Shown here piece by piece: positions 4,352-44,787 of a DNA stretch of 64,000 bases; positions within the stretch are counted from its first letter, which is position 1, and each line of letters begins with the position of its first letter. Made by a program: the position numbers and the translations under genes. The notes below the pieces were generated by a model. The model was not told the origin of the DNA and searched no databases. It was given only the letters and a program-made list of their open reading frames with translations. The stretch comes from a virus (taxonomy: Duplodnaviria > Heunggongvirae > Uroviricota > Caudoviricetes). The DNA lies in the IMG/VR virus record IMGVR_UViG_3300042535_000037, positions 36,031-100,030 of that record; one strand, 5' to 3'.

Positions 4352-4352
4352 T

Positions 4353-5620: not shown

Positions 5621-5753
5621 CTCTCTTCATCGGTTTTTCTCCAATTACATTAACTAACTTTCTAAAAACCTTTTTATATTTTCGAGTTGACATTAGGTTG
5701 TGCGGTCATTCATCGCTCACTTTGTCAACTCACTCATTCAGGACCGCACTGCC

Positions 5754-6336: not shown

Positions 6337-6424
6337 GTGTAAATACTAATTCTAATGTTATTTGAACTTTCTCATTACTATTTTTCAGATAAACTATATA
6401 TACAAATACATCATTTCCGAATTC

Positions 6425-9141: not shown

Positions 9142-9216
9142 GAGTCCGTAGCTCAGTTGGTAGTTAGCGTCTGACTGTTAATCAGAAGGTCGTAGGTTCG
9201 AACCCTGCCGGATTCG
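9142..9216 (+). tRNA. tRNA-Asn (GTT)
   Basis: cloverleaf: acceptor GAGTCCG/CGGATTC, U8, GG in D-loop, anticodon loop CUGUUAA, T-loop TTCGAAC, discriminator G; D-stem only 3 bp (TT insertion). Confidence 0.7.
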
Positions 9217-12801: not shown

Positions 12802-15800
12802 ATGAACCTTAAAAGCCTACTGATATTCCTATTCGTATTTCTTTTAACCATCAACGTAGGTTCCGCAGCTACACCGCCAATTGTGTACGTTGCTACTGAC
12901 GGAACAGGCGACTACAACTGTGATGGAACTGCCGACCAAGTACAATTAAACGATGCGTTATTATTTGCCTATAATAACAGAGCATCTGGATACACTACAG
13001 TCTACCTAAGAAGTGGAACTTACTGGATAGACTCTCAGATATTTCTCACCAACAACATAATTCTTACAGGTGATTCTACAGCTAAAATTAAGCTTATAGA
13101 CGACTGTCCTTGGCAAAGAACGTACACAGGTGCATTGGCATATTCATCTTCTGGTACTCAAACCTTGCCTATGATAATGGCTCGTAGTGGTCATAATACA
13201 GGTTTCACTATCACTAACATCATTATTGATGGAAACTCTCAAGGAAACACAGATGTACCATTTGGTCAGGGATGGTATAACCTCTTAAACTTCTACCAGT
13301 GTACACATGTTTCACTGGACCATGTTACGTTACAGTATGGTAAATCAGACGGATTTAAATTTCAGTCAGGCTCATACGCTTCAATGACAAACTGTAATGT
13401 CAACAAAATAGGTCACGATGCAGGGTATTTCCTATACTCAAACTACATAACGTTTACAAATAATACTGTATTTACTCGTACAAACTCTGCATGTCGTATC
13501 AGTAGCGGTGCTCACATAGTTATTGCTCACAACCATATTTACTCAGGAACCATTACCACTGCCGATGGTGGCGGCTCTTCAACCGGACCCGGAATTGAAA
13601 TAGATTTAGATGGCTCTGAATACTGTTATGATTGTGAAATATATGACAACGTAATTCATGACCTTAGAGGTTCAGGCATATGGATGACATCATCTAATGC
13701 AGATGGTGGAAGAGATGTTCACATCTATAACAATATAATTTATAATGTTGGTAAATATACTTACTTTAATGGTTACTCTATGGGTGGAATAACGCTCTTC
13801 CAATTCAACAATTCAATCATAGAGAACAATGTTTTTAATGAAGCAGGAGTGGGAGCACTCATTTACGCTGAAGGAACTGATTCTCCTACAGGTGGAAGCA
13901 AGCTTTATCATACTACTTTCAGAAACAACATAGTCATTAACACAAATGACCAACTACCAACTACTTCAGGTGGTTCAACTTACATATATGCAGTTCCAAT
14001 AATGAATCATGATGGAACTTACAGTAGAATCCATGCTTACAACAATGACTTCTACAACAACTACAACAACCTTGTCTACAAATCACACGTAGCTACAGAC
14101 TCTAACAACCTAGCAGTGGACCCTCAATTCGTAGATGCAACAAATCATAACTACCATCTAAAATCAACTGCTGGTCACTATAACAACGGAAATTGGGTAA
14201 TAGACGCTGTATCTTCATCACTCATAGATGCAGGTCTCTCTACTTCAGACTATTCCGATGAACCTGAACCCAACGGTAATCGCATCAACATAGATGCATA
14301 TGGAAATACTGCTCAGGCATCTAAATCTCCAACTGAGACAACACCTACCCCAGACCCAGACCCCGTTAATCCTGAGCCTGAACCTGTAGTAGTAGAGATA
14401 CAAGACCCTGTAGACAACCGCTTGCGCTCTCTATCTCCAACAACAGTATACTCTTCATCTACATACATAGATGCAGGAAATATAGCTTCTACGAGCTCTA
14501 CGGTGCGTGACCTGATTTGGTACGACCTAACAAATTACAACGATTCAAGCCAAGTAACTAGTGCCGAACTCAAATTGTTCTGGTATTATCAAACATCACG
14601 TACTTCAGATACAATCATAGAAATCTATAGACCTGCTGCAACATGGAGTACATCAACTGCAACATGGAACAATGCTAACACATGGTATGATGCTAACGGA
14701 GTGCTTGGTGGTTCAACACCATACGATTCAATCACATTCCCATCAACACAATCTCCAACAAACAGTTACTACTCATTTGATGTAACTGACCTTGTACAAG
14801 CATATGCAGAAGGAACCTACACTAACACAGGTTTCCTCATCAAAACACGTACAGAAAACAATGACTACGTTGCTTTCTACTCTCTAGACAACGGAAACTC
14901 TTCAAGGGTTCCAGTATTAGACATAAGTAGCACAGCAGTAAATATTGAAGCGTACTCTCCTACATCAAATCCAACGAAAACAGTAGGACAGTCACAAATT
15001 TTTACTACTCAATTAACTGCTACAGGAGATGTAGAATGGTCAGTTGATGGTATAATTAAGGAATATGACCTTAATACTCAACATGCATCATACACCTTCA
15101 CACCAACTGCTGCAAGAACCTATACGATAAGAGCAGAGACACCAACTGCTTACAAGTCTTGGTCTCTCACAGCTACATCAAATTCAACATCTAACCCTGC
15201 ATCTAACGTGACTACCTCAGTCTCAGGTATAGCCTACGTTGCTACTACAGGCTCCGACACTACAGGTAATGGTTCAATTTCTCTACCATATGCCACAATC
15301 ACAAAAGCCCTAACAACAACTGCACCTACAATCATGGTTAAAGGTGGTAACTATAACCTAGCTACCCCAATAACCCGTAGTAATGTAATAATTAAGGGAT
15401 ATAACGGCAATGCAGTATTTGACCATTCCGATGATACAGGAACAGCCTTCACGGTTACAGGTAGAACAAACATTACTCTACAGAATCTCATAATTCGTAA
15501 CTATGAATATGGTGTCTATGGAACAACTTCACTAACAAACTTGATAGTAGAGAACTGTTCAATCACAAATAATGCTCAGGACTCAATCTGGCTCGACCAG
15601 ATAAACGCCAACGGAATATACCTATATAACTCTACATTTGCAGACAATGAATATCACGGTGTCCATCTATCTAACCAAGAAGTAGGAAAACTAATCCAAA
15701 ATGTAGTCATAGAAAACAATGATTTCTATGATTGTCCAAGTAATCTATTGGACTTCCGTTCCAACGTTACGGATGTTACTTGCTCTGAAAATTATTACTA

Positions 15801-16824
15801 CTTCAACTCAGATGAAATCCAGCAGGTAGGAGTATATATCCACAATAACAACTTGGAGACATTTAGTTTCACTAATGAAGAATTCTATAACTGTGCTAGA
15901 CCTATGGAAATACTCAACGGTCAATCAGTTACAGTTACAAGTTCTCACTGGAACAATATTCACGATGCAACTGCACCACCAGTCTACGTCAATGGAGTTG
16001 AATTCCCTGTTACAGCTTCAGGTAGAGCAATTCTCTTCGGTGGTAACTCTCCAACTAACGAAGGAACTACATATACAGGATACAACAATGTATTCACTGA
16101 TATAGAGCAAACTCTATTTCCAACATACTCTGAAGCAGTAGGAACACCAGTTACAGTGCGTGAATATAACGCTACACTATCAAATGTATCTAAAATATTC
16201 TCTACTTCATCCTGCATAGAAAATATTGCAATACAAACATACCATAATTCACCAGTTAAAACCTTTGAATTTACAAATGCAAATGCTTTGACTTGGAAAT
16301 GGTATGTTAACAATACTTTGGTAGAAACAGACACTAATACGTACTTCCCATCACGTATTCAGAGCGGAATGACAACTGGAACCAATGTCTCAGCAATATG
16401 CACAGACAACGGTGATACACTCCGCATGACTTGGATTAGAGGAAATGGAACAGAAGTTAACGGTGTAATCTACACTAGATACCCGTATACAAGTTCTCCA
16501 AAGCAACTGAAGGGCAATGATGTTTCATTCTCTCTTACTCTCAATGGAAATGCAGACACAAAATGGTATGTAGATAATGTTCTTGTGGAAACAGATTCTT
16601 CCTCAAGTCCAACTTACATATACAATGCCACTGTATCTGGAACACATGTAGTAAAAGCAGTGACATCAGAAGAGACATACACTTGGAATCTTAACGTAGA
16701 AAACCCACAGCAAAAGTTCTACGTAGGTGTAATCACAAGAATAGGTCAAGTGCTATCTTGGGATACAAGAAAACCAACATATGACGACCAAGTTGTAGAC
16801 GGGTTCACCATAATTACAAGGTGA
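12802..16824 (+). CDS. giant secreted right-handed beta-helix (pectin-lyase-fold) repeat protein, adhesin/receptor-binding-like
   Basis: signal peptide; repeated NxxxxN/beta-helix turns (NNTVFTRTN, IAHNHIYSG, DNVIHDLRGSGIWM, ITNNAQDSIWLD); Pro/Thr linker. Confidence 0.75.
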   Translation: MNLKSLLIFLFVFLLTINVGSAATPPIVYVATDGTGDYNCDGTADQVQLNDALLFAYNNRASGYTTVYLRSGTYWIDSQIFLTNNIILTGDSTAKIKLIDDCPWQRTYTGALAYSSSGTQTLPMIMARSGHNTGFTITNIIIDGNSQGNTDVPFGQGWYNLLNFYQCTHVSLDHVTLQYGKSDGFKFQSGSYASMTNCNVNKIGHDAGYFLYSNYITFTNNTVFTRTNSACRISSGAHIVIAHNHIYSGTITTADGGGSSTGPGIEIDLDGSEYCYDCEIYDNVIHDLRGSGIWMTSSNADGGRDVHIYNNIIYNVGKYTYFNGYSMGGITLFQFNNSIIENNVFNEAGVGALIYAEGTDSPTGGSKLYHTTFRNNIVINTNDQLPTTSGGSTYIYAVPIMNHDGTYSRIHAYNNDFYNNYNNLVYKSHVATDSNNLAVDPQFVDATNHNYHLKSTAGHYNNGNWVIDAVSSSLIDAGLSTSDYSDEPEPNGNRINIDAYGNTAQASKSPTETTPTPDPDPVNPEPEPVVVEIQDPVDNRLRSLSPTTVYSSSTYIDAGNIASTSSTVRDLIWYDLTNYNDSSQVTSAELKLFWYYQTSRTSDTIIEIYRPAATWSTSTATWNNANTWYDANGVLGGSTPYDSITFPSTQSPTNSYYSFDVTDLVQAYAEGTYTNTGFLIKTRTENNDYVAFYSLDNGNSSRVPVLDISSTAVNIEAYSPTSNPTKTVGQSQIFTTQLTATGDVEWSVDGIIKEYDLNTQHASYTFTPTAARTYTIRAETPTAYKSWSLTATSNSTSNPASNVTTSVSGIAYVATTGSDTTGNGSISLPYATITKALTTTAPTIMVKGGNYNLATPITRSNVIIKGYNGNAVFDHSDDTGTAFTVTGRTNITLQNLIIRNYEYGVYGTTSLTNLIVENCSITNNAQDSIWLDQINANGIYLYNSTFADNEYHGVHLSNQEVGKLIQNVVIENNDFYDCPSNLLDFRSNVTDVTCSENYYYFNSDEIQQVGVYIHNNNLETFSFTNEEFYNCARPMEILNGQSVTVTSSHWNNIHDATAPPVYVNGVEFPVTASGRAILFGGNSPTNEGTTYTGYNNVFTDIEQTLFPTYSEAVGTPVTVREYNATLSNVSKIFSTSSCIENIAIQTYHNSPVKTFEFTNANALTWKWYVNNTLVETDTNTYFPSRIQSGMTTGTNVSAICTDNGDTLRMTWIRGNGTEVNGVIYTRYPYTSSPKQLKGNDVSFSLTLNGNADTKWYVDNVLVETDSSSSPTYIYNATVSGTHVVKAVTSEETYTWNLNVENPQQKFYVGVITRIGQVLSWDTRKPTYDDQVVDGFTIITR

Positions 16825-18542: not shown

Positions 18543-19223
18543 ATGAGTAGGAAATACTTGAAAATAGATACCCTCTGGAAGAGAAGAGAAGGAAAGAAAG
18601 GAGCAGTAATTCCAAATGACTACTCCAATCCAGTTTTTCCAAACATAAAAATGTGGATTGCCACAGAAAAAATCAATGGAGAAAACATTCGTATTATGTA
18701 CGATGGCTCTACAAAGACAGTTTCATATGCTGGAAAAACTGATGATGCAGAAATATTTCCAGAGATAATGGATTATCTTCAGGAAAAATTCAGCATAGAG
18801 AAATTCAGAGCTCTTGATAATTTTGACGAAGATACCGACATAACAATTTTCGCTGAGGCTTGCCATAAAAGAATATTAGATTCATATGTATATTTAAAAT
18901 CAGACGAAGTTGCCAAGGTCATCATTTTTGATGTTAAAATAGGCAAGTGGTGGCTGGAACACAACAATGTAATTTCAATTGCAACACATTTTGTTGTTGA
19001 TAATGCACCAGTTCGCTACATAGGAACCATTGAAGAATTGATTAAATTTGTAGTTAAGGAGCAGCAAAGTGTACTTACATATCCTAAAGAAGTAACATTC
19101 GAAGGAATTGTTTGTACTCCACATCCAATGGTGCTCAATCGTGACGGAACTCCCGTTAAGTTCAAGCTAAAGGTTGAAGATTTCCGCAAGCTAAAAGCCA
19201 TAGGCGAAGAATACAAGGTGTAA
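18543..19223 (+). CDS. minimal RNA-ligase-like nucleotidyltransferase (Rnl2-like core)
   Basis: motif I KINGEN, motif III FAEACH, motif IV EGIVC, motif V KFKLK. Confidence 0.55.
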   Translation: MSRKYLKIDTLWKRREGKKGAVIPNDYSNPVFPNIKMWIATEKINGENIRIMYDGSTKTVSYAGKTDDAEIFPEIMDYLQEKFSIEKFRALDNFDEDTDITIFAEACHKRILDSYVYLKSDEVAKVIIFDVKIGKWWLEHNNVISIATHFVVDNAPVRYIGTIEELIKFVVKEQQSVLTYPKEVTFEGIVCTPHPMVLNRDGTPVKFKLKVEDFRKLKAIGEEYKV

Positions 19224-19225
19224 AA

Positions 19226-19771
19226 ATGGTAATCGGATTTACAGGAACTCATTGTACAGGAAAGAGTACTCTTGTTAGACAATTAACTAAAATTGGCTAC
19301 CGCGAAGTATCAAACTCAATTCGTGACTATATAGCTAAGTTCCCGCAATATCAGGAACAATTCTTCAAGGGAGATGAGGCTCTTCAGTTTCACTTCTTAC
19401 ATCAACATATAAACAGAACATGTGCTCCCCATTATCCTTCAGCTTCAGACCGCACCTCAATAGACTATCTTGCTTACTACATGCGTCTACCCGAACAAAA
19501 GTTCCCTGAAATGTATAAGGAGCTCGCTATGTCTGCTCTCATCAACTACGATGTAATTTTCTATACTCCAATAGAGTTTGAATTCATAGATGATAATCTA
19601 CGATTTAAAGACGATTCGCGTGTTCAGGTAGATGAAAACATCTGCTCAATAATTCGTGAGATAAAAAAGGATGATACATACGTAGACATAATACCAGTGA
19701 CAGGCTCCATTCAAGAACGAATGAACACAATTGCAGATACTCTTAGAGAAATGAGAATGGTCATTCACTGA
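19226..19771 (+). CDS. P-loop kinase (polynucleotide/nucleotide kinase-like)
   Basis: Walker A GFTGTHCTGKST; starts 2 nt after ligase-like gene. Confidence 0.55.
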   Translation: MVIGFTGTHCTGKSTLVRQLTKIGYREVSNSIRDYIAKFPQYQEQFFKGDEALQFHFLHQHINRTCAPHYPSASDRTSIDYLAYYMRLPEQKFPEMYKELAMSALINYDVIFYTPIEFEFIDDNLRFKDDSRVQVDENICSIIREIKKDDTYVDIIPVTGSIQERMNTIADTLREMRMVIH

Positions 19772-22032: not shown

Positions 22033-22704
22033 GTGATTATCATGACAAAAATTGTAGAAATTGAACGTGAAAACGGATGCATCGAATGTGTTTCTCATAG
22101 AGCAGTTAATGGAAATCCTCTTACTATTCTCGAAGATGGTAAAAGAATTAAGTACTCTGAACTAAAATGGAAAATGGAAAAAGGAGAGATACCAGCCGAT
22201 ATGTCTATTTCTTACTTATGTGGAAATCCTAATTGTGGAAATCCAGACCATATGACCCTTATTACTAAAAAAGAAAAATATAACTTCTTCTCAAGAAATG
22301 GTATAGACTTCTATATTGGAAAATCAAATCTCACTCCCGAAATAATCAGATACATCTATGTTGCACCAGCAGAAATGAGCAATAAAGATGTTTCTCAAGA
22401 CGTATTCTTCAAATTCGAAAGAAGAATAAAGACAGATACAATATCTGGAATTCGTAAAGGAAAGAGGTTTGTAGAAATGACTCAAGACCTTGAATCTCCA
22501 ATTCTAGGCAAAGGAATCCGTAGCGAGATGTCAACTGGTAAAAGTAAAAAGAAATTTAGAATTACGGTTGACCAATTAACTCCTGAGCAAATAGAAAAAA
22601 TCAAAGTAGAAGATGCTGTAATTAACCACTTCACCTCAAAATTCAATGTTTCCAAAAAAACCATTAAAGCTATTCGTAGTGGAAAATACTCAGTATCATT
22701 ATGA
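22033..22704 (+). CDS. HNH-like (HNH_3-type) endonuclease-related protein
   Basis: SHRAVNG...YLCGNPNCGNPDHM...resembles HNH_3 HR..DH.NG..N motifs. Confidence 0.4.
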   Translation: MIIMTKIVEIERENGCIECVSHRAVNGNPLTILEDGKRIKYSELKWKMEKGEIPADMSISYLCGNPNCGNPDHMTLITKKEKYNFFSRNGIDFYIGKSNLTPEIIRYIYVAPAEMSNKDVSQDVFFKFERRIKTDTISGIRKGKRFVEMTQDLESPILGKGIRSEMSTGKSKKKFRITVDQLTPEQIEKIKVEDAVINHFTSKFNVSKKTIKAIRSGKYSVSL

Positions 22705-23095
22705 TGAGATAAAACTCATCAACATCTTTTTATATGTATTTTTTCATTTTACCACTATGTTCATACAAAAAATCAAGTATCTAATATTATTCTACGTCAT
22801 CGGAGATTTAGCAACCACAATATACGCCATCAACAACGGTTTAGCGTATGAGGGAAACCCGCTAATGGCTCCATTGGTAGATTATTCAATATACCTTGCT
22901 CCACTTGCAGCAAAGATATTCATAATTGGACTGTTGTATGCTTGCTATATTTATACAACAAACGAACCTGTAACAAAACTTGGAAAGAAGACTTATACCA
23001 CTAAATCATTCTTTAATGGTGCAGTAGTAATAATAACAGTTATAGGTATCCTTGTCACCCTGAATAATATCATGGTGATATTCGACATCCTATAA
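22646..23095 (+). CDS. multi-pass membrane protein
   Basis: several TM helices. Confidence 0.4.
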   Translation: MFPKKPLKLFVVENTQYHYDEIKLINIFLYVFFHFTTMFIQKIKYLILFYVIGDLATTIYAINNGLAYEGNPLMAPLVDYSIYLAPLAAKIFIIGLLYACYIYTTNEPVTKLGKKTYTTKSFFNGAVVIITVIGILVTLNNIMVIFDIL

Positions 23096-25238: not shown

Positions 25239-25282
25239 CCAAAGCTTTTTATATATAAAACACCTTTTTAGTGTGGTGAACC

Positions 25283-26053
25283 ATGTTAGAAATCCAGCCA
25301 ATTGTATCTATCAATGCTCAGACATTCTCTGAAGCATACATGAAGGTTCTATGGAACATTAAAGAAGTTGGCGTAGAACACAAACCAGATTACAACGTTT
25401 CAACAAAAAGAATTTATCTTGCACTCTTTGTAAAAGACGTAAACTCTGACCAGTTAAGTCCAATCTGTCCTCTTAAAGAGGAATCTCTCAAGCTCTACAA
25501 AGATGAGCTTAAAGAAGAGTATGCAGAATGGTATGTCTCCCTTCCAGATGATGACAAACGCAAGTTTGACTATTGCTACGCCAAGCAGCTCTACAAGTTT
25601 GGTACAGAAGACATGAATACTCTCAGGATGAACCTTCTCAGTCTTCGCGTAGGCTCCCGAAGACATGCAGCCGCTCTATGGGATAACCGTCTTCACATCG
25701 AAAAATATGAAGACCAGCCATGTTGGGTCTTCTACAAGTTGGAGCTCCTGAGCGAAACAGACCTTCTCGTCTACATTACATATCGTTCATGGGATGCCTT
25801 TGGTGGACTTCCATTTAACCTTCCTGCAATTACTCATGGAATCCAAGACACCATTAAGAAACTCAACCTACCCTACAACATAGTTGGTTTCTTTGCAAAT
25901 GGCTACGATACTCACATATATGAAACTGACCAGAAGCAGGCATTTGATGGTCTCAAGAACTACTCCCCATGTTCAAAATGTGGAGAACCAACCCTTAAAT
26001 CACAAATGACCTTTAATTCAAAGGGTCTTTGTTGTAAAAGCTGCCTGAAGTGA
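25283..26053 (+). CDS. divergent thymidylate synthase (ThyA) family enzyme with C-terminal zinc ribbon; TS or pyrimidine hydroxymethylase
   Basis: SRRHAAALWD, PCWVFYKLEL (catalytic Cys), YITYRSWDAFGGLPFNLP (RS..D...N), GYDTHIY (H,Y) match ThyA cores; N-terminal third diverged; CSKCG...CCKSC tail. Confidence 0.7.
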   Translation: MLEIQPIVSINAQTFSEAYMKVLWNIKEVGVEHKPDYNVSTKRIYLALFVKDVNSDQLSPICPLKEESLKLYKDELKEEYAEWYVSLPDDDKRKFDYCYAKQLYKFGTEDMNTLRMNLLSLRVGSRRHAAALWDNRLHIEKYEDQPCWVFYKLELLSETDLLVYITYRSWDAFGGLPFNLPAITHGIQDTIKKLNLPYNIVGFFANGYDTHIYETDQKQAFDGLKNYSPCSKCGEPTLKSQMTFNSKGLCCKSCLK

Positions 26054-28562: not shown

Positions 28563-29204
28563 ATGAAGATTTCAGATACAGATATTAAATTAATCAAAGA
28601 TTTCGCAATAAGTGAATTACTTGCAAGCGAAAGGAAAGGGATTGAAAATCTCGTTGACTTCATGAATTCAAATGATTATTTTGATGCACCTGCATCTAAA
28701 GGACATCACCACAATTATGAAAATGGTCTTCTTATTCATTCTTATGATGTTCACATTAACTTCACTGTAAACTTATCCAAGTTTGGATTTGACCCATCAA
28801 GAATAAATCCAGCTATAGTGGCTTATGGTCATGATATCTGTAAACATAAACAATATCAGTTCCAATATGGTAATATAGCCTACAACAATGTTGAACTCGA
28901 TAAGGGTCATGGTAAATATTCAGTAGAAATACTTGAAAAATTCATCAAACTTACGTATGCAGAAAAAGCAATAATTCAATTTCATATGGGAGATTTCTAT
29001 ACTTCAGAACTTAATACTGAACATGGAGAATACCCAAGAAAGCTATTAAGCGCAACCCTTGGAGTACACCCAGAACTACTAACTTTCATATATGCAGATG
29101 TAAAATCTACTGGCGAAGTAAATAGAGAGATGCAAAATCATCTTAACTTACTACATGCAAACACTGAATCCACAGTTGAGGATTTCACCTTTATTGGAGA
29201 GTAA
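28563..29204 (+). CDS. HD-domain phosphohydrolase
   Basis: GHHHNYENGLLIHSYDV ... AYGHDICKH (H..HD..D). Confidence 0.55.
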   Translation: MKISDTDIKLIKDFAISELLASERKGIENLVDFMNSNDYFDAPASKGHHHNYENGLLIHSYDVHINFTVNLSKFGFDPSRINPAIVAYGHDICKHKQYQFQYGNIAYNNVELDKGHGKYSVEILEKFIKLTYAEKAIIQFHMGDFYTSELNTEHGEYPRKLLSATLGVHPELLTFIYADVKSTGEVNREMQNHLNLLHANTESTVEDFTFIGE

Positions 29205-30140
29205 ATGTTCCTTGCTACATGTGAGGTTTTCACAAAAAACGGATGGAAACTTCTACCCGAAGAACCTTGTTCTATCCCAGATGTATTTACATTTGACCCT
29301 AATTCTGGAAAGATAGAACTAGGAAAATTCACCTACAAAACAACTGAGTATGTAGGAAAAGTAGTTACTATTCAAAATCGTTTACTTGACTTGGTATTTC
29401 CAGAATTATCCATGTTCCTTACTAACCAGCAAGAAAAAATCAATTGTTATTGCCGTTTTCCAGTATATGCAATAAACAAAAAAAGTACTACATCTCTTCC
29501 AGTATCGGGATACTATGAAGGCTCGGAAATAGAAGACCCTTTACTTTTGTACTTGGTTGGTATCATCATTTCAAAAGGAAGACTATCTTCAGAAAACATA
29601 GAATTATTTATAGAAATGGAAGACTTAGCAGACCATATCTCCGATGTATTAACTGAATTAAGCATCTCTCATAAAAAGAATTCAATCCAAATAGGAGATA
29701 CAACTGCAACAGCCTTTAAGATTCAAAATTACAAGCAGTACGAATTTTCTAAATACTTCAACAATTCACTTCATCCAAATTCTATGCTACTTGAAATATC
29801 TATTCCAGAGAGACTAGCAATTATAGAAGCAATTATGGATACATGTTCATCTAAACGTGACCGTTTCATATTTACACATCCCGATAAACAAATTCATGAA
29901 TTCATAAGAGACCTGCTAACACTTAGCGGGATGAACTCTTATTACGTGAAAACTATGTACTCAGGTCTATCTTTATCAATAAAGCCTGAGCCATTCGCTA
30001 CCGTTCACCACTCAAATTTCGACAACTCAATATCAAAAGCCGAAATGAACAGCAAGTTTATAAGTGGTAAAAATAAGTTCAATACAGTAGTTGTGAAATG
30101 CGCAGACAAAATTTGCGTTGTTCATACAGACAATCCATGA
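29205..30140 (+). CDS. hypothetical protein (weak Hint/LAGLIDADG-like features, not supported)
   Basis: same frame as HD gene across a single TAA. Confidence 0.45.
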   Translation: MFLATCEVFTKNGWKLLPEEPCSIPDVFTFDPNSGKIELGKFTYKTTEYVGKVVTIQNRLLDLVFPELSMFLTNQQEKINCYCRFPVYAINKKSTTSLPVSGYYEGSEIEDPLLLYLVGIIISKGRLSSENIELFIEMEDLADHISDVLTELSISHKKNSIQIGDTTATAFKIQNYKQYEFSKYFNNSLHPNSMLLEISIPERLAIIEAIMDTCSSKRDRFIFTHPDKQIHEFIRDLLTLSGMNSYYVKTMYSGLSLSIKPEPFATVHHSNFDNSISKAEMNSKFISGKNKFNTVVVKCADKICVVHTDNP

Positions 30141-32705: not shown

Positions 32706-34694
32706 GTGATGGTTATGAAAAAATACTTTATTTTATTTTTACTCCTACTCATATCAACGGCAAGTGCAGTTGATGTGAACCCACCCTTAGTATTTGCGGG
32801 TAATACAACTTCAGTTACTCTCAATTACTCAACTACAGTTGATGCCTTAACATTCTATTCTCAAAACAATACCCTAGTAATGGATGATATATCTCATCAG
32901 TTTACTACTACAGGAACGATGAATGTTACTTTCAACGGTTTATTAGAGCTTACTCATACAGGTAGCACAGGTACTTGGACCGTTGGCGGGCTACAGGATG
33001 GAAACTATTCTCTATACATAGACGACTCCTTCTATGAAACAATTTCAAATGGAGATGCTGTATCCCTTAATTCTATAGCAAAATATGAAATTCAACCAGC
33101 AGACGATGTTATGACTTTGAACATGACTTATTGGGAACCTCTCAATGAAACATGTGCTAAATTCACCATCTCAAATGTCTATACAGCATGGTATCCACAG
33201 CTTTCATACACAGTAGCAGACCATACATATTTCCTTTACCGTGACTCAACAGGAACTCTCCTTGCAACTAACGCTACTACATCAACAAACCAAACCATCA
33301 CACTTATAGGAGACTCCATACTTACTTCAGGAAATTATACCATCACTCACATTTTAACATCACTTGTAGGAGTAACTGTTCCAGAAATTACATCATACTC
33401 ACCATCTACACCATCATTCTCAATATTACCAAGTGGTCAAACATCTCAGAGAACATTTACAATTTCATCTGCCAATGACCCCAACTTAGACGTAAAATGG
33501 TATTATGGTGACAAATTCTACAGTTCATACGCCAATGATGAAAATTACATATCTACTTATGGATATACATTAGTAGACACTGTAGAAGTCAATTCTACAT
33601 CAACAACACATACATTCACAACTGATGAACCTGAAACAATAGGTGTAATTGCTCGTCTTATGAATGAGTCAAGTGGTCTCTATGAAGACAAAATCTGGAA
33701 TTGGGTAGTTCAGGAACCAGACTTTGATGAATCTATGGAATATAGTAGTGTTCCTACAGAGAAACCAAACACTATCATCCTTACATCTTCAAATGAGCAC
33801 ATATCAAGTGTAATCTTAGAGTATGAAATTGATGGGGAATACACTAACGTAACAATGGAATCTACATACTCTAATTATGAATATGGAGAAACCATTAACA
33901 ATGAAACTTCATACACATATACTGAAATATTTGAATGTGAAATTAACCCAATGGAAGAAGGAACCTATAACATTGCATCATACTATGTAACTCAGGATGG
34001 AGTTCAATACTCTATAGATGGAAATCTTGAGTTTACAGCAGCAGTAGATGGTTCCACAGTTCAATATACAACTCGTTCTTCCGGTGGCTCATCTTCCGGT
34101 GGTAGTGGTGGAAGTTCAAAGACAACTCAGACCCAAGAAATCATAGAAAAACTCGTAGTTAAAGATGGAGTGGAAACATTCAAGAAGACTTCAGAACACT
34201 CTCTATATTCAGTTTCATCATCAGATGAATCATTTACTGTGCTTGTAAAAGATATAGACAGTGAATTAGAAGATGAATCCGTCTACAAAGAAATGGACAT
34301 TTCAACAACTGAAAACGAAACAGTTGACATAACATTCCTTGTAGATACCTCTTGGCTTAACGAAAATGGCGGCTCTGTAAAACTCCTTCATTATACAAAC
34401 GATGAATGGGTAGAAGTTCCAGTAAAGATGCTCTCAAAGACAGATGACTATGTTAAATATGGAGCAACATTAACTTCATACTCTCCATATGCAATCGTGG
34501 CATCCAACGCCAACGTAGGAACCTCTACGAGCGACTCAGACGTAGGAACCTACATTATCATAGCAGTACTTGTAATAGGAGCTCTAGCGTACCTAAGATT
34601 CAAGCCAAGGTCAAAGAAACCCTTTAGTCTTAAATCCCTAAACAAGACTAAACAAAAATCAAAGCCAAAAAAGAGAAATTGGACAGAATTATGA
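32706..34694 (+). CDS. cell-surface protein (signal peptide, Gly/Ser linker, C-terminal TM + basic tail)
   Basis: canonical promoter; S/T-rich. Confidence 0.6.
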   Translation: MMVMKKYFILFLLLLISTASAVDVNPPLVFAGNTTSVTLNYSTTVDALTFYSQNNTLVMDDISHQFTTTGTMNVTFNGLLELTHTGSTGTWTVGGLQDGNYSLYIDDSFYETISNGDAVSLNSIAKYEIQPADDVMTLNMTYWEPLNETCAKFTISNVYTAWYPQLSYTVADHTYFLYRDSTGTLLATNATTSTNQTITLIGDSILTSGNYTITHILTSLVGVTVPEITSYSPSTPSFSILPSGQTSQRTFTISSANDPNLDVKWYYGDKFYSSYANDENYISTYGYTLVDTVEVNSTSTTHTFTTDEPETIGVIARLMNESSGLYEDKIWNWVVQEPDFDESMEYSSVPTEKPNTIILTSSNEHISSVILEYEIDGEYTNVTMESTYSNYEYGETINNETSYTYTEIFECEINPMEEGTYNIASYYVTQDGVQYSIDGNLEFTAAVDGSTVQYTTRSSGGSSSGGSGGSSKTTQTQEIIEKLVVKDGVETFKKTSEHSLYSVSSSDESFTVLVKDIDSELEDESVYKEMDISTTENETVDITFLVDTSWLNENGGSVKLLHYTNDEWVEVPVKMLSKTDDYVKYGATLTSYSPYAIVASNANVGTSTSDSDVGTYIIIAVLVIGALAYLRFKPRSKKPFSLKSLNKTKQKSKPKKRNWTEL

Positions 34695-36860
34695 TTCTGT
34701 CTCATACATATTTCTTATTTCAATAATATTCTTGTGACAAATATATGGCATCTTTTCTTTCTTTCTTAATAGCCATCCATAGAACTCATTGTCTTCCTTC
34801 GTGAACAACTTATTCTCATGAACACTTCTACTCTTCTTTAATTTGTGAGCAACATCTCTAGCCTTCTTCCATCTCCTATAATACGCGCCCTTGATTTTTA
34901 CCATCTTTCCTTCTGCATCCTCAAGGACATAACCTTCAATGTACTCTCCGTTCCTCTTGAATTCCATAGCAGTAGACTCTTCTACAAACTTAGTGAATTC
35001 ATTGGAATCATTAATTTCCCCATCATACTCCTTTACTTCTGCTCCAATCAACTTTCCAAGACTAACCAACTGTTCATATGGTAATCTCTCAAGCTTGAAG
35101 TCATTCTTTACTACATCGAGTAAAATTACTTCCTTTCTTTCATACTCTATTATATGTGGGTCATTTTCAGGGTCAAGAACCTCAAACACAAAGGTTACAT
35201 TGAAGTCCTTGATATATTGCTCAAGTGCATCTATGTTAAGACTCTTGGTTGCAATATGCTTGAACCAATCCGCGTATATACCTTCGGTAGTACTCTTACT
35301 TGCATAAAGCATTCCCAACTCTTCATCTCTTCCTATAAGCCCTAGGAACCCATTATACTTCACGAACTTATGTATCGGGTACTTAGCATTTACACTTATC
35401 TTTTGGAACGATGCAGACTCATTTTCATCAATATTAAAGAACTTCTCATAAGCTCTCATGACTATCTTGCCTGTTTGGACATTGACAAATAATCCTCTTG
35501 CCTTGATTGTCTGCTCATTCCAAATCTTCTTCCTAAATACCTCTCTGTCAAAATTATAGCTTACAATCTTGCCATCACACATGAAAACCTTGTTTATATT
35601 GTCATTTGCGTTCAGCTTTTCAAGCATTTCTCCCTCTGGAAGAACCTTTTCTTCATATTGCCTGAATACCGTATTAACTGTATAAACAAAGTCATATCCA
35701 TTTTCACTAATCTCAAATGCCCTGAGATTATCTCCCTTTTCTACTTCAGAATCTACTATGAAGCATCTTTCATTCATTACGGGTAACTTTGCTATATTTC
35801 TATGACCAAATACCTGATAATGATTCTCAGGAGCATTTTCATTGAAGGACTTAACTACTTCTCCTATTGACTTGTACTGACCGACACCATTTATCATCTG
35901 CTCAGTACTAATCAAAGCCAAGAACTGCGGAATATTGCTTAATCCACCGTGAGTACAAAGGAACCTTTCTCCATTATATTCATAATAGAAACACTCAAGC
36001 AGCTTCCTACACAACATTCTGACCTGCTTCTTAGTAACCCCATTAGGTTCCAAGTCCTTTGGCAAAGTCCTGTAAGTAAACTCCCTGCTCTGACAACTAA
36101 ATGGTACATTATCAGGTGAATTTCCCCACAACCAGAGCCATCTCTCATGGTTTCCTTCTAGCAAAACTACGTTCTTCTTTTCTGCAATTTCACAAAGGAA
36201 CTTAACGACCTTGGCATTCTCGATGCCTCTATCAATATAATCCCCTGTGAATATATAGAATTCATCATCTCTGATTTCACCATCTAGATACTCCATCAAT
36301 GCAGTGTGACATCCATGAATATCTCCGATATGGTGAATCTTCTTATATCCATTCAAATTTACACAAATATTCTTAACTTCTCCAAAGAAGTTATCCTTGT
36401 CAATAAACTTGACATACTTCTGTGTTTCAAAGTTATCGAATCTTGAGTACATCCTGTCAATTACATCTTCAGGCACGAACTTGTATGCATCTCTACTTCT
36501 ATTCCTTTCCTTGCAAATTTCAATTGGAACATCTGTAAAGTCAACACATCTCAATCTGTACCTATACTTTTCACAAAGAGTCTTATATCTGGTGAAATCT
36601 GTTCTCTTGCTATGGGTAGCATCAATTACTATAAAGTCTCCCCTATCCATTCTCTTCTCAAGAATCTCGAACATTAAATCCCAAACGTAATTATCATTCC
36701 TCTGGCTAATTCCCATATTTCCTTCAGCCGTAAGTTCAGGACTCTGACACAGGAGCCTTATATCATCAAGACAAATAGTATATGGCTCTAATCCATTCTC
36801 CCTAATCCAAGTGCTCTTTCCACTTGCAGGGCTACCTCTTGTAACTATTAAATATCTCAT
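34689..36860 (-). CDS. pnkp: polynucleotide kinase-phosphatase-ligase (bacterial Pnkp-like trifunctional end-healing/sealing enzyme)
   Basis: N-terminal P-loop GSPASGKST; central GDIHGCH, GDYIDRG, GNHE phosphoesterase; C-terminal nucleotidyltransferase motif I KYNGF. Confidence 0.7.
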   Translation of the reverse strand: MRYLIVTRGSPASGKSTWIRENGLEPYTICLDDIRLLCQSPELTAEGNMGISQRNDNYVWDLMFEILEKRMDRGDFIVIDATHSKRTDFTRYKTLCEKYRYRLRCVDFTDVPIEICKERNRSRDAYKFVPEDVIDRMYSRFDNFETQKYVKFIDKDNFFGEVKNICVNLNGYKKIHHIGDIHGCHTALMEYLDGEIRDDEFYIFTGDYIDRGIENAKVVKFLCEIAEKKNVVLLEGNHERWLWLWGNSPDNVPFSCQSREFTYRTLPKDLEPNGVTKKQVRMLCRKLLECFYYEYNGERFLCTHGGLSNIPQFLALISTEQMINGVGQYKSIGEVVKSFNENAPENHYQVFGHRNIAKLPVMNERCFIVDSEVEKGDNLRAFEISENGYDFVYTVNTVFRQYEEKVLPEGEMLEKLNANDNINKVFMCDGKIVSYNFDREVFRKKIWNEQTIKARGLFVNVQTGKIVMRAYEKFFNIDENESASFQKISVNAKYPIHKFVKYNGFLGLIGRDEELGMLYASKSTTEGIYADWFKHIATKSLNIDALEQYIKDFNVTFVFEVLDPENDPHIIEYERKEVILLDVVKNDFKLERLPYEQLVSLGKLIGAEVKEYDGEINDSNEFTKFVEESTAMEFKRNGEYIEGYVLEDAEGKMVKIKGAYYRRWKKARDVAHKLKKSRSVHENKLFTKEDNEFYGWLLRKKEKMPYICHKNIIEIRNMYETES

Positions 36861-37227: not shown

Positions 37228-40200
37228 ATGAAAACTATTTCGTTTGTATTGCTTTTACTTCTAATATCAGGAGTAGCTTCTGCTATGACAGACTACAAAG
37301 GTATTATTGAACTGAATAACGCTGACCCTACACGTATTAATCAAACTTTAAAGCTTGCTATTCCTTATTCTACTGGAATGGACTCAGACTTTTCAAACGT
37401 AGCTTTTTACGATGATAGCGGTACGCTTCTAAAAGCATTCAGAATGGAATATACTGCCTCTTCTACTGCAACTTATTATGTTCAGGTTCCAGAGGTAAAA
37501 CATGGTTATAGTAAAATTTACATCGCATTAGATGAGTCTTTGTCAACATCTTACGCAACCGATGACTCCGTATTTATTTTCTATGACCCACTTATTGCAA
37601 ATACTACTACATTTACTCAGTACACTGCATCTGGTTCTAACTCAGTTTCATATGATACAAACGGAATGTATATTACTGGTTCTGGCAAGTCCTTGTTCCT
37701 CACGTCAGTAGACCTTAATTCCTCAGTACCAATGGTCCTAGAAGTAGAAGCAAAATCAACAGACGAAACAAATAGAATGTATACACAAGACCTATATTTA
37801 ACACCATTTTATCTAAACACTACTGCATACAGAAGTTTCCCTGCGTTGTTCGGAGACTATAATGATGCCGTAACCTTAGCTTACGGTAGTGCTCGTTCAA
37901 ATGACAAGCAAATTACAGAAATAGATATGACAAATGGAGTAGACGTATCTCTCAAGCCATTATCATACATAGATAACCTCGAAGATGTGAGTCATGACCT
38001 CATGGAAGTATACGAACCCACCTCTCCAAATGGTAACTACTATGGTATATATTCAGGCTCCGCTACTGGTGTACACTACGCTTTCAATACAAATCAATAT
38101 CTATTGACAGATTGGGCTACATCATCAGGTGATATCAATGATGCCACTCAGTATGGATACCTAACATGTACAAATGAATGGAGTAAGTATGGAGATTCAA
38201 TATACTTTAATGGTATAAATGGATTTACTCAAACTACTTACAAGTTTGACCCCTATGATGCAGGAACAGATATAAGTTTCTGGATTAATCCATCTTTATC
38301 TACATATTCATCAGATATAATTTTCTACGGTGTCAACTCTACCTCTGGAAGTCGCCTAGCTGTACAAATCAACTCCAATACCTTATCTTTATATGGTAAA
38401 AATAGTACAGGCTCAACATTTACTTCATCCACAACTACATTTAGCCCAAAAACAGAATACTTCATCCAAGTAAAAACAGTTAGTGAAAGTGGTCAAAATC
38501 ACATGAAGTTCTACGTCAACAACGTACTCATAGATGACGATGTAGTAGTAGGAGATGCTACTCTTGACTACTTCAGACTTGGATATGGACTATCATCTAA
38601 CACAAACTACAATGGTTTCATGGATGAGCTTAGAATCAACTATAAGGTTCCTACCCAAAATGCTTATCTCATGGCAACTGATTGTTCAGGAGCCTATTCA
38701 ACTCCTTCACTTACAGCATATGTAGATAATGTATATCTTGGAACAATAGGATTACGTGACCAATCAAAGCTTTCAAACAATGAAATAGGATTCCTGTCAA
38801 AAGGTCTTCCAACAAAGTACAAGAATCTCATAGTTACAAAGTACAACTTCAACAATGTAGACTACGATGTAACTTACTTTACAGTAGATACGGATGAAGT
38901 CTTGTTCCCTGAAGTATCTACGACCCTTAACTTCAGCGAAGCACATGACTCTTACGTTGTAAGAACTACAATTCCAAAGACATCCAACATAGATAGTGAC
39001 TTCTCTAATGTCAAAATAACAAATGGTGCAGGCGTTAGTTTACCATTTTATGTTGAATCCACAAGCACAAATTCTGCAATAATTAACGTAAAACTTACCA
39101 ACGTAGCAGAAGGAGAAAACCAAATCTATGTCTATGCTGGTGACTCTTCAATGAGTTCAGAATCAAGTGCTCTTAAAACATATGACTTTTATGATGAATT
39201 TAGCGAATTAAGTACTGTTAAATGGGATTATCCAACAGAAGATGTCTCAGTATCAGAAGGTCAACTATGTTTAGCAGAAGATGGTGTATATGCCACATCT
39301 AAATATAGAACAAATGAAAGTAATGAATTAACTACATATATTGAATTCAATGATGATTATTTCCTTACTCATAGCTTTGGTATGACTAGATACTTAGGCG
39401 ATGTAACAGAAATTACAGGATATTCATCATCTTCATTCCCATATTCGTTTAGAATGGTAGAATTTGAGATGGCTATTGGAGAAGATGTTAGAGATATAAT
39501 TCCATATTTAAGAGCAGGTGGAGATACATACAACTCAGCTACAGGTACTCAGAAAAATGCATATACATTAGAAAATGCCAAGTATAATATTACATATAAT
39601 TATACTTCTAATGTTTTAATAGCAGACTCTTCAAGTGGAAATTTTGTAGTTTCACAACTTTCAAATAATCTAAATAGTCAAGAAGTATCTCCTTTCTTTG
39701 CTTCAAAATCAAATACTCAACCTACACGAATTAACTATGTATATGTAAGAGCTCTTACTGATGAACCTACAGTTTCATCATCTACTGACTTGGTAACTCT
39801 TACATCTGAAGACATAGCAGACGATACAATAGTCATAGGAAACTATGCTCACGTAGCTGTAGAACTTGGAGATGTACCTACAGACTTCGACATATCTTCT
39901 GTCAAAATCAATATTACAACTCCATCAACTACAACATTATATCCAATGGAAGAAGACTCAAACACTGAATGGGCGTTATGGATTCCATATCAAACATCTG
40001 GTGACTATACAATTAATGGATATGTAATCAACGATGACAAAGAATTGTCATCCAACATAACTTTTAAGATAGCACTAGCAGGTGGCTCAGGTGGCGGCTC
40101 TTCAGGCGGCTCTTCTTCCGGTGGTTCATCTAGTGATGACGAATCAACTGATACAACTTCAGAAGAGGAAACTGAAGCATCTGCTTCAGAAGAAACGGTT

Positions 40201-40749
40201 AAGACAGAACTTTTAGATGGTCAAGCTGTAGCAGAATTCACAAACTACGATGAGACAGGTCTCTCAAAAGCGACTATAGATTCAAATCTTATCTATAGTA
40301 TAACTGCATATGAGTATTCACCTACAATTGAGAACTACCTAGTATACAAAGGTTTCAAATTAGAGTCTAATAGGGAAGTCACAGAGCCAATAACTCTAGA
40401 GCTCAAGGTACTAAAGTCATGGGTAGAAGCAAATAACGCCAAAGAGCCTGTAATTCAATCCTATAGCTCAGGAATATGGACCGCGTTAGAAATTACCTCT
40501 TCTTCAGAAACCAGCGAGTACTATGTCTATGAAGTCCAAATAGACAATATTGATAATCCAATTGCAATTACGTACTCTCAGGGCGGTTGGTCTCAATACA
40601 TACCATCCATAGACACAAGTGCATTACCTGAAGCTATAACAGGTTCATTCTTGGCTCAATTTGCAATTGCAGGAGCAGTTTTCATAGGAGCAATAGTTCT
40701 CCTTACCAGAAAACCAAAAAAGAAAGGTAAAAAGAACGTCAACTTCTGA
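37228..40749 (+). CDS. giant cell-surface protein with LamG/concanavalin-like domain, Gly/Ser linker and C-terminal TM anchor
   Basis: signal peptide; YFRLGYG...NGFMDELRI LamG-like; GGSGGGSSGGSSSGGSSS linker. Confidence 0.7.
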   Translation: MKTISFVLLLLLISGVASAMTDYKGIIELNNADPTRINQTLKLAIPYSTGMDSDFSNVAFYDDSGTLLKAFRMEYTASSTATYYVQVPEVKHGYSKIYIALDESLSTSYATDDSVFIFYDPLIANTTTFTQYTASGSNSVSYDTNGMYITGSGKSLFLTSVDLNSSVPMVLEVEAKSTDETNRMYTQDLYLTPFYLNTTAYRSFPALFGDYNDAVTLAYGSARSNDKQITEIDMTNGVDVSLKPLSYIDNLEDVSHDLMEVYEPTSPNGNYYGIYSGSATGVHYAFNTNQYLLTDWATSSGDINDATQYGYLTCTNEWSKYGDSIYFNGINGFTQTTYKFDPYDAGTDISFWINPSLSTYSSDIIFYGVNSTSGSRLAVQINSNTLSLYGKNSTGSTFTSSTTTFSPKTEYFIQVKTVSESGQNHMKFYVNNVLIDDDVVVGDATLDYFRLGYGLSSNTNYNGFMDELRINYKVPTQNAYLMATDCSGAYSTPSLTAYVDNVYLGTIGLRDQSKLSNNEIGFLSKGLPTKYKNLIVTKYNFNNVDYDVTYFTVDTDEVLFPEVSTTLNFSEAHDSYVVRTTIPKTSNIDSDFSNVKITNGAGVSLPFYVESTSTNSAIINVKLTNVAEGENQIYVYAGDSSMSSESSALKTYDFYDEFSELSTVKWDYPTEDVSVSEGQLCLAEDGVYATSKYRTNESNELTTYIEFNDDYFLTHSFGMTRYLGDVTEITGYSSSSFPYSFRMVEFEMAIGEDVRDIIPYLRAGGDTYNSATGTQKNAYTLENAKYNITYNYTSNVLIADSSSGNFVVSQLSNNLNSQEVSPFFASKSNTQPTRINYVYVRALTDEPTVSSSTDLVTLTSEDIADDTIVIGNYAHVAVELGDVPTDFDISSVKINITTPSTTTLYPMEEDSNTEWALWIPYQTSGDYTINGYVINDDKELSSNITFKIALAGGSGGGSSGGSSSGGSSSDDESTDTTSEEETEASASEETVKTELLDGQAVAEFTNYDETGLSKATIDSNLIYSITAYEYSPTIENYLVYKGFKLESNREVTEPITLELKVLKSWVEANNAKEPVIQSYSSGIWTALEITSSSETSEYYVYEVQIDNIDNPIAITYSQGGWSQYIPSIDTSALPEAITGSFLAQFAIAGAVFIGAIVLLTRKPKKKGKKNVNF

Positions 40750-43977: not shown

Positions 43978-44332
43978 AGAAATTACCAAGACCTTATCAT
44001 TTGAAGACTTCAAAAACATTATCTACCGTTCTAAAATGAACGGTGCTACTTTTTCAGTTGAAACAGATTTTGAAGATGCTCCAATAGAAGATGAATTAGA
44101 CTTAGAACTCCACAACGAATTCTCAGAAGTTATCCATAGAAACAACATATTTGAAATTATAGGTTTCCTTTACATTGAAGGTATAGAAATTCGTAACCTT
44201 AGTGTTCAAGTTAAACCATTCGGAACAGTAACATTCTTCAAAAATCACATTTACTACAACACAGAATCAAAAATAGAAACTCTTCTTCGCATTTGTGGCT
44301 ACATGCCTACCATAATCAAGGAGTCAACATGA
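43949..44332 (+). CDS. hypothetical protein
   Basis: ORF. Confidence 0.45.
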   Translation: MRMLYMNEYKEITKTLSFEDFKNIIYRSKMNGATFSVETDFEDAPIEDELDLELHNEFSEVIHRNNIFEIIGFLYIEGIEIRNLSVQVKPFGTVTFFKNHIYYNTESKIETLLRICGYMPTIIKEST

Positions 44333-44787
44333 GACCATCTCAAGATGAATACTACATGAACATCGCAAAGGTCGTAGCGACCCGCTCAACATGCGTTCGT
44401 AGACAAATAGGTACAGTACTTGTCCGTTACAATTCAATCCTTGCTACAGGCTACAACGGAGCTCCCAGAGGCTTACCACACTGCATAGATGTAGGCTGTA
44501 TCCGTGAACAACTCAATATCCCCTCTGGAACCCAACATGAGCGTTGCCAAGCTATTCACAGTGAAGTTAATGCAATTTTACAATGTGCTCTTCATGGAAT
44601 CTCTACAAAAGGAGCTATCCTCTATTGTACAAATCAACCATGCTCAATTTGTGCTCGCATAATTATTAATGCAGGTATCTCAAGAATCATCTATGAAGGT
44701 TCCTATCCCGATGAAGCAACTATAAATCTCTTCAAACAAGCCAACATTCCTCTTGTAAAAATGCAAGTAAAACCTTTTATACATTAA
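44329..44787 (+). CDS. dCMP deaminase (cytidine/deoxycytidylate deaminase family)
   Basis: HSEVNAI and PCSICA zinc motifs; SD AAGGAGT. Confidence 0.85.
   Translation: MRPSQDEYYMNIAKVVATRSTCVRRQIGTVLVRYNSILATGYNGAPRGLPHCIDVGCIREQLNIPSGTQHERCQAIHSEVNAILQCALHGISTKGAILYCTNQPCSICARIIINAGISRIIYEGSYPDEATINLFKQANIPLVKMQVKPFIH

Follow-up and report, generated by a model that had tools for sequence, protein, structure and literature searches.

Zinc-ribbon ThyA of a large archaeal virus or plasmid: a probable auxiliary thymidylate synthase

The thyA-like gene and its product

The 64,000-nucleotide stretch of DNA analysed here, referred to as the window, comes from IMG/VR virus record IMGVR_UViG_3300042535_000037 (positions 36,031 to 100,030 of that record). 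Our subject is a thyA-like open reading frame (ORF) at 25283..26053 (+) of the window, which starts with ATG and encodes a protein of 256 amino acids (aa). Both sequence and fold make this protein a member of the ThyA superfamily, and we argue below that it is probably an auxiliary thymidylate synthase (TS) of a branch related to that of methanogens. It matches PF00303 (Thymidylat_synt) over residues 82-225 with E 1.8e-8 and 34.3 bits, above the gathering cut-off of 24.3, and PHROG 160 'thymidylate synthase' over residues 9-226 (2.2e-11); its sequence matches in the PDB are T4 td and E. coli TS. An AlphaFold2 model, built with 12 family sequences, has a mean predicted local distance difference test (pLDDT) score of 84 and a predicted template modelling (pTM) score of 0.84, and Foldseek relates it with probability 1.00 to TS-superfamily structures (TS and MilA), at template modelling (TM) scores of about 0.60. 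A first-pass annotation, made from the letters alone, had called the product a divergent ThyA-family enzyme; the domain match, PHROG 160 and the fold all bear this out.

The protein falls into two parts. The catalytic domain (residues 1-225; 25283..25957, +) carries the nucleophile Cys147 in a PC147W motif, together with S125-R126-R127, R168-S169, D171, PFN179LP and DTH211IY213, and alignment with the E. coli enzyme adds Y99 (Y94 in E. coli) and E75 (E58 in E. coli). For these comparisons the E. coli ThyA reference was identical to wild-type PDB entries and the T4 gp42 reference to GenBank records. The motifs that the first-pass annotation had listed (PCW, R-S, Asp, the Asn of PFNLP, and DTHIY) are all present, and the residues for catalysis and for specifying deoxyuridylate (dUMP) are conserved. 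Across the zinc-ribbon family described below, C147, R126/R127, R168/S169, D171, H211, Y99 and E75 are invariant or nearly so, Y213 is nearly invariant, and N179 is invariant in the alignment.

The second part (residues 226-256 plus the stop codon; 25958..26053, +) is a putative zinc-ribbon-like tail with the pattern C230-x2-C233-x17-C251-x2-C254, which replaces the C-terminal segment of canonical ThyA. It is modelled as short β-strands with pLDDT of about 90, its four cysteines are invariant in the family alignment, and it may well bind a metal ion. Upstream of the ATG, at 25246..25279 (+), candidate archaeal expression signals can be read: a TATA-like A/T-rich box, TTTATATA, at 25248-25255, and GGTGA at 25275-25279, both of which would presumably act in expression of the gene.

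A small subfamily with orthologues in methanogens

Relatives of this protein are rare. Only 15 were found among 5.8 billion proteins, most of them 252-258 aa long and 43-65% identical to it; the full-length metagenome homologues cover the same range of identity (43-65%) at 96-100% coverage, and the Cys-rich tail is present in those of the 15 that extend to the C-terminus. When 1.84 billion cluster representatives were searched exhaustively with a profile, only four full-length proteins scored above 260 bits. The next scores, at about 80 bits, belong to short archaeal-type ThyA proteins, and this abrupt drop implies that the zinc-ribbon ThyA subfamily is small and sharply delimited.

Cellular orthologues of zinc-ribbon thyA were nevertheless found in 34 species-level genomes, with one genome taken per species. 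Their products match window ThyA in length and in the ribbon, and are 45-52% identical to it. Most of these genomes are of Methanolobus, including M. profundi, M. halotolerans, M. psychrotolerans, M. vulcani and M. bombayensis, with three complete chromosomes among them; the others are Methanomethylovorans, one metagenome-assembled genome labelled Methanococcoides, and unclassified Methanosarcinales. NCBI annotates the Methanolobus orthologue as thymidylate synthase. The flanking genes are kept in 21-32 of the 34 loci, in the chromosomal order RFC large subunit (751 bits), methanogenesis marker protein 4/MtxX (242 bits), ThyA, a gene for a protein of about 730 aa, and ilvD. Such conserved flanks imply that zinc-ribbon ThyA is a vertically inherited core gene of the Methanolobus group. 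An ORFan-rich upstream flank had suggested that the Methanolobus copy might lie in a provirus, and the synteny over 34 genomes rules this out. The chromosomal arrangement of RFC large subunit, MtxX, ThyA and ilvD is absent from the window, where the only ORF with a homologue at the chromosomal locus is ThyA itself.

The CxxC-x17-CxxC spacing is found in 40 of the 42 members of the zinc-ribbon ThyA family. Because the ribbon is common to the whole family, including the chromosomal orthologues of 34 genomes, it is not a fusion specific to the element. The first-pass annotation was thus right about the four-Cys C-terminal tail and mistaken in treating it as something specially appended; the ribbon is an ancestral structural trait of the subfamily. 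Taken together, similarity and ribbon assign window ThyA to the zinc-ribbon ThyA subfamily of the Methanolobus group.

Two observations on the subfamily deserve mention. On the chromosome of Methanolobus sp. WCC5 (L001/L030:9099-10774), as in about 30 genomes, thyA lies directly downstream of Mmp4/MtxX and beside the gene for the RFC large subunit, and this adjacency to MtxX may reflect a link to pterin C1 metabolism. The relative P0003 (447 aa, on a 3-kb JGI contig) begins with a partial extra ThyA copy in which 'YQPN' stands for 'DQPC' and the catalytic Cys is lost; this degenerate half-copy is followed by a complete zinc-ribbon ThyA, giving the appearance of a tandem duplication.

Placement among synthases and hydroxymethylases

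To which branch of the superfamily does this subfamily belong? Profile comparison places methanogen-type TS nearest to it. The TIGR03283 model of that type aligns with window ThyA from end to end (model positions 2-200 of 201; 45.1 bits), and hhalign against named Methanococcales TS gives a probability of 98.5% and E 3.7e-15 over 205 columns, covering residues 6-225. With canonical ThyA the alignment is confined to residues 122-223 (hhalign against E. coli ThyA, E 1.7e-7), and the canonical model TIGR03284 scores only 19.1 bits, short of its cut-off of 108.35.

This placement bears on the diverged N-terminal third of the protein, which the first-pass annotation had singled out. The divergence from canonical ThyA is real, as the restricted hhalign match indicates, but it is no sign of new chemistry. 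Methanogen TS proteins P0036 (Methanocaldococcus, 263 bits) and P0048 (215 bits) have neither the R21 loop nor the W80/W83 helix nor the long C-terminal segment; since genuine methanogen TS diverges in the same way, the N-terminal third is in its ordinary archaeal-type state.

The proposed kinship with hydroxymethylases fared less well. Comparison by hhalign revealed no specific similarity to the dUMP hydroxymethylase gp29 of SPO1 (probability 0.75%, E 0.075) or to the deoxycytidylate (dCMP) hydroxymethylase gp42 of T4 (E 0.46). Fold searches of the PDB and BFVD, tried as a means of splitting TS from hydroxymethylase, were set aside, with MilA, gp42-like proteins and TS all at TM-scores of about 0.6.

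Individual residues offer a further comparison. In characterised enzymes, N177 versus Asp separates dUMP from dCMP substrates, L143 versus Asp or Glu separates water exclusion from hydroxymethylation, and Asn at the D169 position marks 5-hydroxy-dCMP synthases (PMC13326640, PMC8670742). At the positions of N177 and D169 window ThyA shows the TS/dUMP states, N179 and D171. The cytosine-specifying Asp of T4 gp42-type dCMP hydroxymethylases is not present, its place being taken by Asn179, and the signature of RB69 gp48-type 5-hydroxy-dCMP synthases (Asn at D169, Asp at N177) is likewise replaced by Asp171 and Asn179. N179 therefore indicates that the substrate is likely to be dUMP rather than dCMP, and D171 argues against a 5-hydroxy-dCMP synthase type. 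The third position, that of L143, is taken up below.

These residues also bear on whether the enzyme might have some other substrate or product, through dCMP methylation or hydroxymethylation, through 5-hydroxylation, or by acting on a ribonucleotide as MilA does. Such activities have evolved repeatedly in the ThyA superfamily (PMC13326640, PMC8670742), and MilA and E. coli TS tie for the top Foldseek rank, at TM 0.60 each. The equality of those two scores, however, deprives the match to MilA of any power to discriminate, while Asn179, not Asp, speaks against cytosine and Asp171, not Asn, against 5-hydroxy-dCMP synthesis (PMC13326640). We regard a departure of this kind as very unlikely.

The element and its conserved thyA module

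The window has a G+C content of about 35% and nearly all of its genes lie on one strand; the source contig is at least 183 kb long, and no megablast DNA match to the element was found among 50,697 phage records. Archaeal signatures are seen in disaggregatase-related repeats, a PGF-pre-PGF domain and DUF2341, and phage-like accessory genes encode an ATP-dependent DNA ligase, a UvrD-type helicase, an HNH endonuclease, a tRNA-Asn, a kinase, phosphatase and RNA ligase in one fusion resembling T4 Pnk plus Rnl1, a second RNA ligase and a metallo-β-lactamase-fold protein. The element is probably a large archaeal virus and possibly a plasmid; viral status is likely but unproven, since no capsid, terminase or portal match was found among the window ORFs scanned. 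A Borg-like element was also considered and rejected, with only 4 trivial tandem repeats in the window.

In a neighbour-joining tree, window ThyA forms with P0002 and P0004 a separate long-branch clade inside the zinc-ribbon family. P0004 is encoded on L002, a contig of 202 kb, and this contig and the window have a collinear module in common. Its members in the window, with their identities to the L002 homologues, are a P-loop kinase of the AAA_28, thymidylate-kinase-like type (19226..19771, +; Pfam AAA_28 5e-14, PHROG 2107 'thymidylate kinase' 4.4e-15; 41%), a DUF5658 protein (22646..23095, +; Pfam match; 30%), ThyA (52%), an HD-type metal-dependent phosphohydrolase (28563..29204, +; PHROG 28876 4.4e-17; 39%) and, beside the HD gene, a 311-aa protein with no family match (29205..30140, +; 25%, E 6e-7) whose counterpart is a protein of about 320 aa. 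On L002 the kinase gene adjoins thyA. The HD assignment of the window protein comes from PHROG 28876, no match being found in Pfam, NCBIfam or the PDB; the L002 homologue has a weak Pfam HD match. A sequence search of the PDB with the kinase gave nothing informative. An HNH endonuclease gene (22033-22704, +) lies between the kinase and thyA in the window, and because it is absent at the matching position of L002 it is probably a mobile, homing-type insertion.

Further out, a ComEB-like dCMP deaminase (44329..44787, +; Pfam dCMP_cyt_deam_1 6.6e-23; NCBIfam ComEB 2.4e-34, below its cut-off) is encoded 18 kb downstream of thyA and is a plausible supplier of dUMP. A GT4 glycosyltransferase gene (about 1332-2462) lies 23 kb upstream, its product resembling polysaccharide or glycolipid transferases. 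The companion genes invoked by the first-pass annotation (dCMP deaminase, P-loop kinase, GT4 and HD phosphohydrolase) are therefore all there, with the HD protein recognised by PHROG 28876 only. Their reading as a modified-pyrimidine enzyme set is not supported: the GT4 and deaminase genes are scattered at the distances just given, and among the approximately 60 ORFs scanned there was no match to 5-HMUDK, to aGPT-Pplase, to a DNA glycosyltransferase type or to any other hypermodification enzyme.

Is the element copy still an enzyme at all? Its long branch, and the half-copy without catalytic Cys in its relative P0003, could suggest a decaying or inactive copy with a non-enzymatic role, as a scaffold or in nucleic-acid binding via the ribbon. 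The ORF, on the other hand, is intact and full length with all catalytic residues present, and the AlphaFold2 model is confident. Sequence constraint is also evident. Among 33 syntenic cellular sequences (those of every genome locus but L036, which is not syntenic), 129 columns are invariant to at least 97% and were counted as host-invariant; in 76 of them the residue is unchanged in each of the three element copies. In the other 53 at least one copy differs, the changes being mostly conservative and none of them catalytic or dUMP-binding. An inactive copy is, in our view, scarcely credible.

A related element on the 19.8-kb contig L042 (Logan SRR13298156_24675) carries three TS-like genes within 6 kb (L042:1485-7782): a zinc-ribbon ThyA (P0014, 1485-2243), a second ThyA (4340-5062) and ThyX (5095-6087). 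The second ThyA has Asp at the N177 position ('LRNDIW') and is dCMP-specific in type, like T4 gp42. L042 also encodes an NT5C deoxynucleotidase, an RFC-like ATPase, PolB and NrdD/NrdG, and is a promising place to look for modification of pyrimidine (cytosine) by an archaeal virus. Another viral record, IMGVR_UViG_3300037011_000200 (98.5 kb), encodes a 264-aa ThyA-like protein (L004:8675-10258) in which a CxxC...CxxC unit is not C-terminal but is inserted within the domain just before the catalytic Cys. Its gene adjoins a QueC-like gene and lies near a ligase gene and one for a dCMP deaminase 44% identical to that of the window.

Other genes and features of the window

Several other products of the window are recognisable. 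A 723-aa fusion encoded at 34689-36860 (-) combines a P-loop kinase, a calcineurin-like phosphoesterase and a T4 Rnl1-type RNA ligase, a Pnkp-plus-ligase arrangement for which no IMG/VR relatives were found. Together with a second RNA ligase-like gene (18543-19223, +) and the tRNA-Asn(GTT) gene (9142-9216, +) it resembles the RNA (tRNA) repair kits that phages use against anticodon nucleases. Two large proteins, one of 1340 aa with a right-handed β-helix, disaggregatase-related domains and CBM96 (12802-16824, +) and one of 1173 aa with DUF2341 (37228-40749, +), are possibly receptor-binding or depolymerase proteins directed at a Methanosarcinales-type cell envelope. The PGF-pre-PGF domain is encoded by ORF 32706-34694.

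The product of 47455-48267 (+) has a metallo-β-lactamase fold with a strong match to PHROG 14556 and a weak one to the anti-Pycsar protein Apyc1, and may be an anti-defence nuclease acting on cyclic nucleotides. A methyltransferase-like protein (54040-54639, +; PHROG 15480, 7.6e-48) and a NinI-like Ser/Thr phosphatase (6362-7117, +; PHROG 246, 8.9e-54) are also encoded. GC skew is negative throughout the window and becomes markedly stronger from about 34 kb, most clearly beyond 42 kb; in 2-kb bins it is about 0 to -0.21 before 34 kb and roughly -0.22 to -0.39 from 42 kb on. A local peak of G+C (43%) is found at 50-52 kb.

Function of the element-borne enzyme

What, then, does the enzyme do for the element? 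With a probability of roughly 0.7, we consider the window gene to encode an auxiliary TS from an archaeal, methanogen-related ThyA branch, carried by a large archaeal virus or plasmid. If family chemistry applies, Cys147 would attack C6 of dUMP, which would be held by R126/R127, R168/S169 and N179. The methylene group would be supplied by methylene-tetrahydrosarcinapterin or methylene-tetrahydrofolate as the reduced pterin carrier, and hydride transfer would then yield thymidylate (dTMP). As to the carrier, Methanosarcina extracts are reported to have relied on tetrahydrosarcinapterin (Nyce and White 1996, as cited in PMC9931769), and folate has been suggested for the Methanosarcinaceae-type ThyA cluster on comparative genomic grounds (PMC9012536). 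The element could thus possess a short chain in which the dCMP deaminase converts dCMP to dUMP, ThyA makes dTMP and the Tmk-like kinase takes dTMP to dTDP, and the role of this chain would be to provide extra dTTP for replication of an A+T-rich element. Ordinary dTTP synthesis accounts for the deaminase, TS and Tmk-like kinase no less well than a modified-pyrimidine pathway does.

A number of observations weigh against this assignment. Neither window ThyA (45.1 bits) nor its Methanolobus orthologue (83.3 bits) reaches the TIGR03283 equivalog cut-off of 174.55 bits, and the zinc-ribbon ThyA proteins are therefore a sister subfamily rather than members of TIGR03283. In place of L143 there is an Asp (Asp144, in 'EDQPCW'), matching SPO1 gp29 ('KDRPC') and T4 gp42 ('SDFMC'), and the W80 helix and C-terminal lid that canonical TS needs for hydride transfer are absent. 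The long branches of the element copies fall outside the compact cellular clade, and no gene resembling those for DHFR or dihydropterin reductase was seen in the window. On L042 the coexistence of zinc-ribbon ThyA, ThyX and a dCMP-type ThyA suggests non-redundant roles for the TS homologues there. The zinc-ribbon subfamily is without biochemical characterisation, archaeal ThyA in general having hardly any (PMC9012536, PMC9931769), and so the name TS is itself an inference even for the cellular orthologues. Finally, Methanolobus could possess a second TS, either ThyX or the standard methanogen type, and this is the main gap in an argument from a housekeeping TS. A TIGR03283-like profile search for such an enzyme returned Methanococcales only, cluster look-ups gave bacteria of the Candidate Phyla Radiation or unnamed proteins, and a viral ThyX query returned no Methanosarcinales.

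Several of these points also favour a different enzyme, a dUMP hydroxymethylase that would hydrate the methylene intermediate to give 5-hydroxymethyl-dUMP, leading to DNA that contains 5-hydroxymethyluracil (hmU), possibly decorated further. The P-loop kinase would then phosphorylate 5-hydroxymethyl-dUMP and the HD hydrolase would deplete dTTP or dTMP. Asn179 specifies dUMP, and Asp144 occupies the 'water-excluding' L143 position as in SPO1 gp29 and T4 gp42 (PMC13326640), so that window ThyA carries the residue pair, N179 plus D144, of the SPO1 enzyme. The determinants of canonical hydride transfer, the W80 equivalent and the lid, are missing from the whole branch, and the element copies are fast-evolving. 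Kinase and HD genes are co-conserved with ThyA in two distantly related elements, and on paper kinase, HD protein and dCMP deaminase make up the enzyme list of an SPO1-type pre-replicative pathway (PMC8989533). The zinc-ribbon ThyA of L042, moreover, coexists with ThyX.

Against this stands the state of the same positions in cells. Both residues of the pair are shared by the cellular orthologues. In at least 30 species of methanogens the core orthologues likewise have Asp144 and no W80 helix or lid, and the residue at the L143 position is Ser or Glu in proteins whose score exceeds the methanogen-TS cut-off. Since Asp144 is common to the cellular orthologues and Ser or Glu occurs in methanogen TS, the L143 rule does not discriminate in the archaeal branch, and the use of L143-to-Asp together with W80 as a call for hydroxymethylase was rejected, the same or missing states being found in methanogen-type TS and cellular orthologues alike. 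No catalytic-site substitution separates element from host copies. The hydroxymethylase reading also lacks any profile similarity to known enzymes of that kind (E 0.075 and 0.46), as well as any 5-HMUDK, aGPT-Pplase or DNA glycosyltransferase-type match in the ORFs scanned; the GT4 enzyme is of a polysaccharide or glycolipid type and 23 kb away, and the HD protein has no assigned substrate. The clustering with canonical TS, folate-binding residues included, that the first-pass annotation had named as counting against its idea was found only by analogy: window ThyA groups with cellular methanogen TS-type genes, but these themselves are without the canonical folate-contact residues, and for that reason the hydroxymethylase idea keeps some probability. 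We judge it unlikely overall.

A narrower version confines the change to the elements, with the clade of window ThyA, P0002 and P0004, and perhaps P0014 of L042, having switched from hydride transfer to hydration and with kinase and HD hydrolase completing a replacement of thymine. The chance of this seems to us slim. If true, it would be without precedent among archaeal viruses and plasmids as an hmU-type replacement of a DNA base initiated by ThyA.

Under the auxiliary TS reading that we prefer, the finding is of modest value: a large archaeal mobile element carries a ThyA of the type of its host lineage within a conserved kinase/HD module. Above all it removes a false lead, in that the ribbon and the diverged N-terminus are traits of the methanogen ThyA lineage rather than marks of a new DNA-modification enzyme. 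It also draws attention to a cellular zinc-ribbon ThyA subfamily that scores below the methanogen-TS cut-off and is known but biochemically unstudied, and it indicates that the L143/W80 rules for telling hydroxymethylase from synthase, derived from bacterial and phage enzymes, are not transferable to archaeal-type ThyA.

Comparison with known systems

The hydroxymethylases T4 gp42 and SPO1 gp29 share with window ThyA the superfamily fold and the acidic residue three before the catalytic Cys. SPO1 gp29 also resembles it in having Asn at the base-specifying position, whereas gp42 has Asp at the N177 position, and neither has the ribbon. Canonical ThyA, as represented by E. coli ThyA and T4 td, shares the core from the SRR motif to DTHxY, with its Cys, Arg, Asp, Asn, His and Tyr. 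Relative to it, L143 has become Asp and H147 has become Trp, no equivalent of W80 is conserved, and the ribbon takes the place of the C-terminal lid. The TIGR03283 synthases of Methanocaldococcus and Methanococcus are like window ThyA in having no W80/W83 helix, no R21 loop and no long C-terminal segment, and differ from the zinc-ribbon subfamily in having neither its extra EEYAEWYVSLPDDD segment nor its ribbon.

The closest counterparts are cellular. ThyA of Methanolobus sp. WCC5 (P0009, chromosome CP146981) belongs to the same 254-258 aa group, with the 45-52% full-length identity seen throughout, and the proteins of Methanolobus, Methanomethylovorans and related Methanosarcinaceae share with window ThyA the CxxC-x17-CxxC tail, the catalytic residues and the EDQPCW and YRSWD motifs. 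The contrast is in genomic context, the Methanolobus-group thyA being a syntenic core gene and the window thyA lying on a mobile element among unrelated neighbours. A parallel for such a gene exists in viruses of ANME-1 archaea, which carry the TS type of their host, interpreted as boosting thymidine synthesis (PMC9894754). There, as here, an archaeal mobile element bears the TS type of its presumed host lineage as an auxiliary nucleotide-metabolism gene. In ANME-1 viruses the enzyme is mostly ThyX, whereas here it is the Methanolobus-group zinc-ribbon ThyA, and the element, not proven to be viral, is much larger. Window ThyA is in this sense a new, mobile-element-borne member of an already known methanogen ThyA subfamily.

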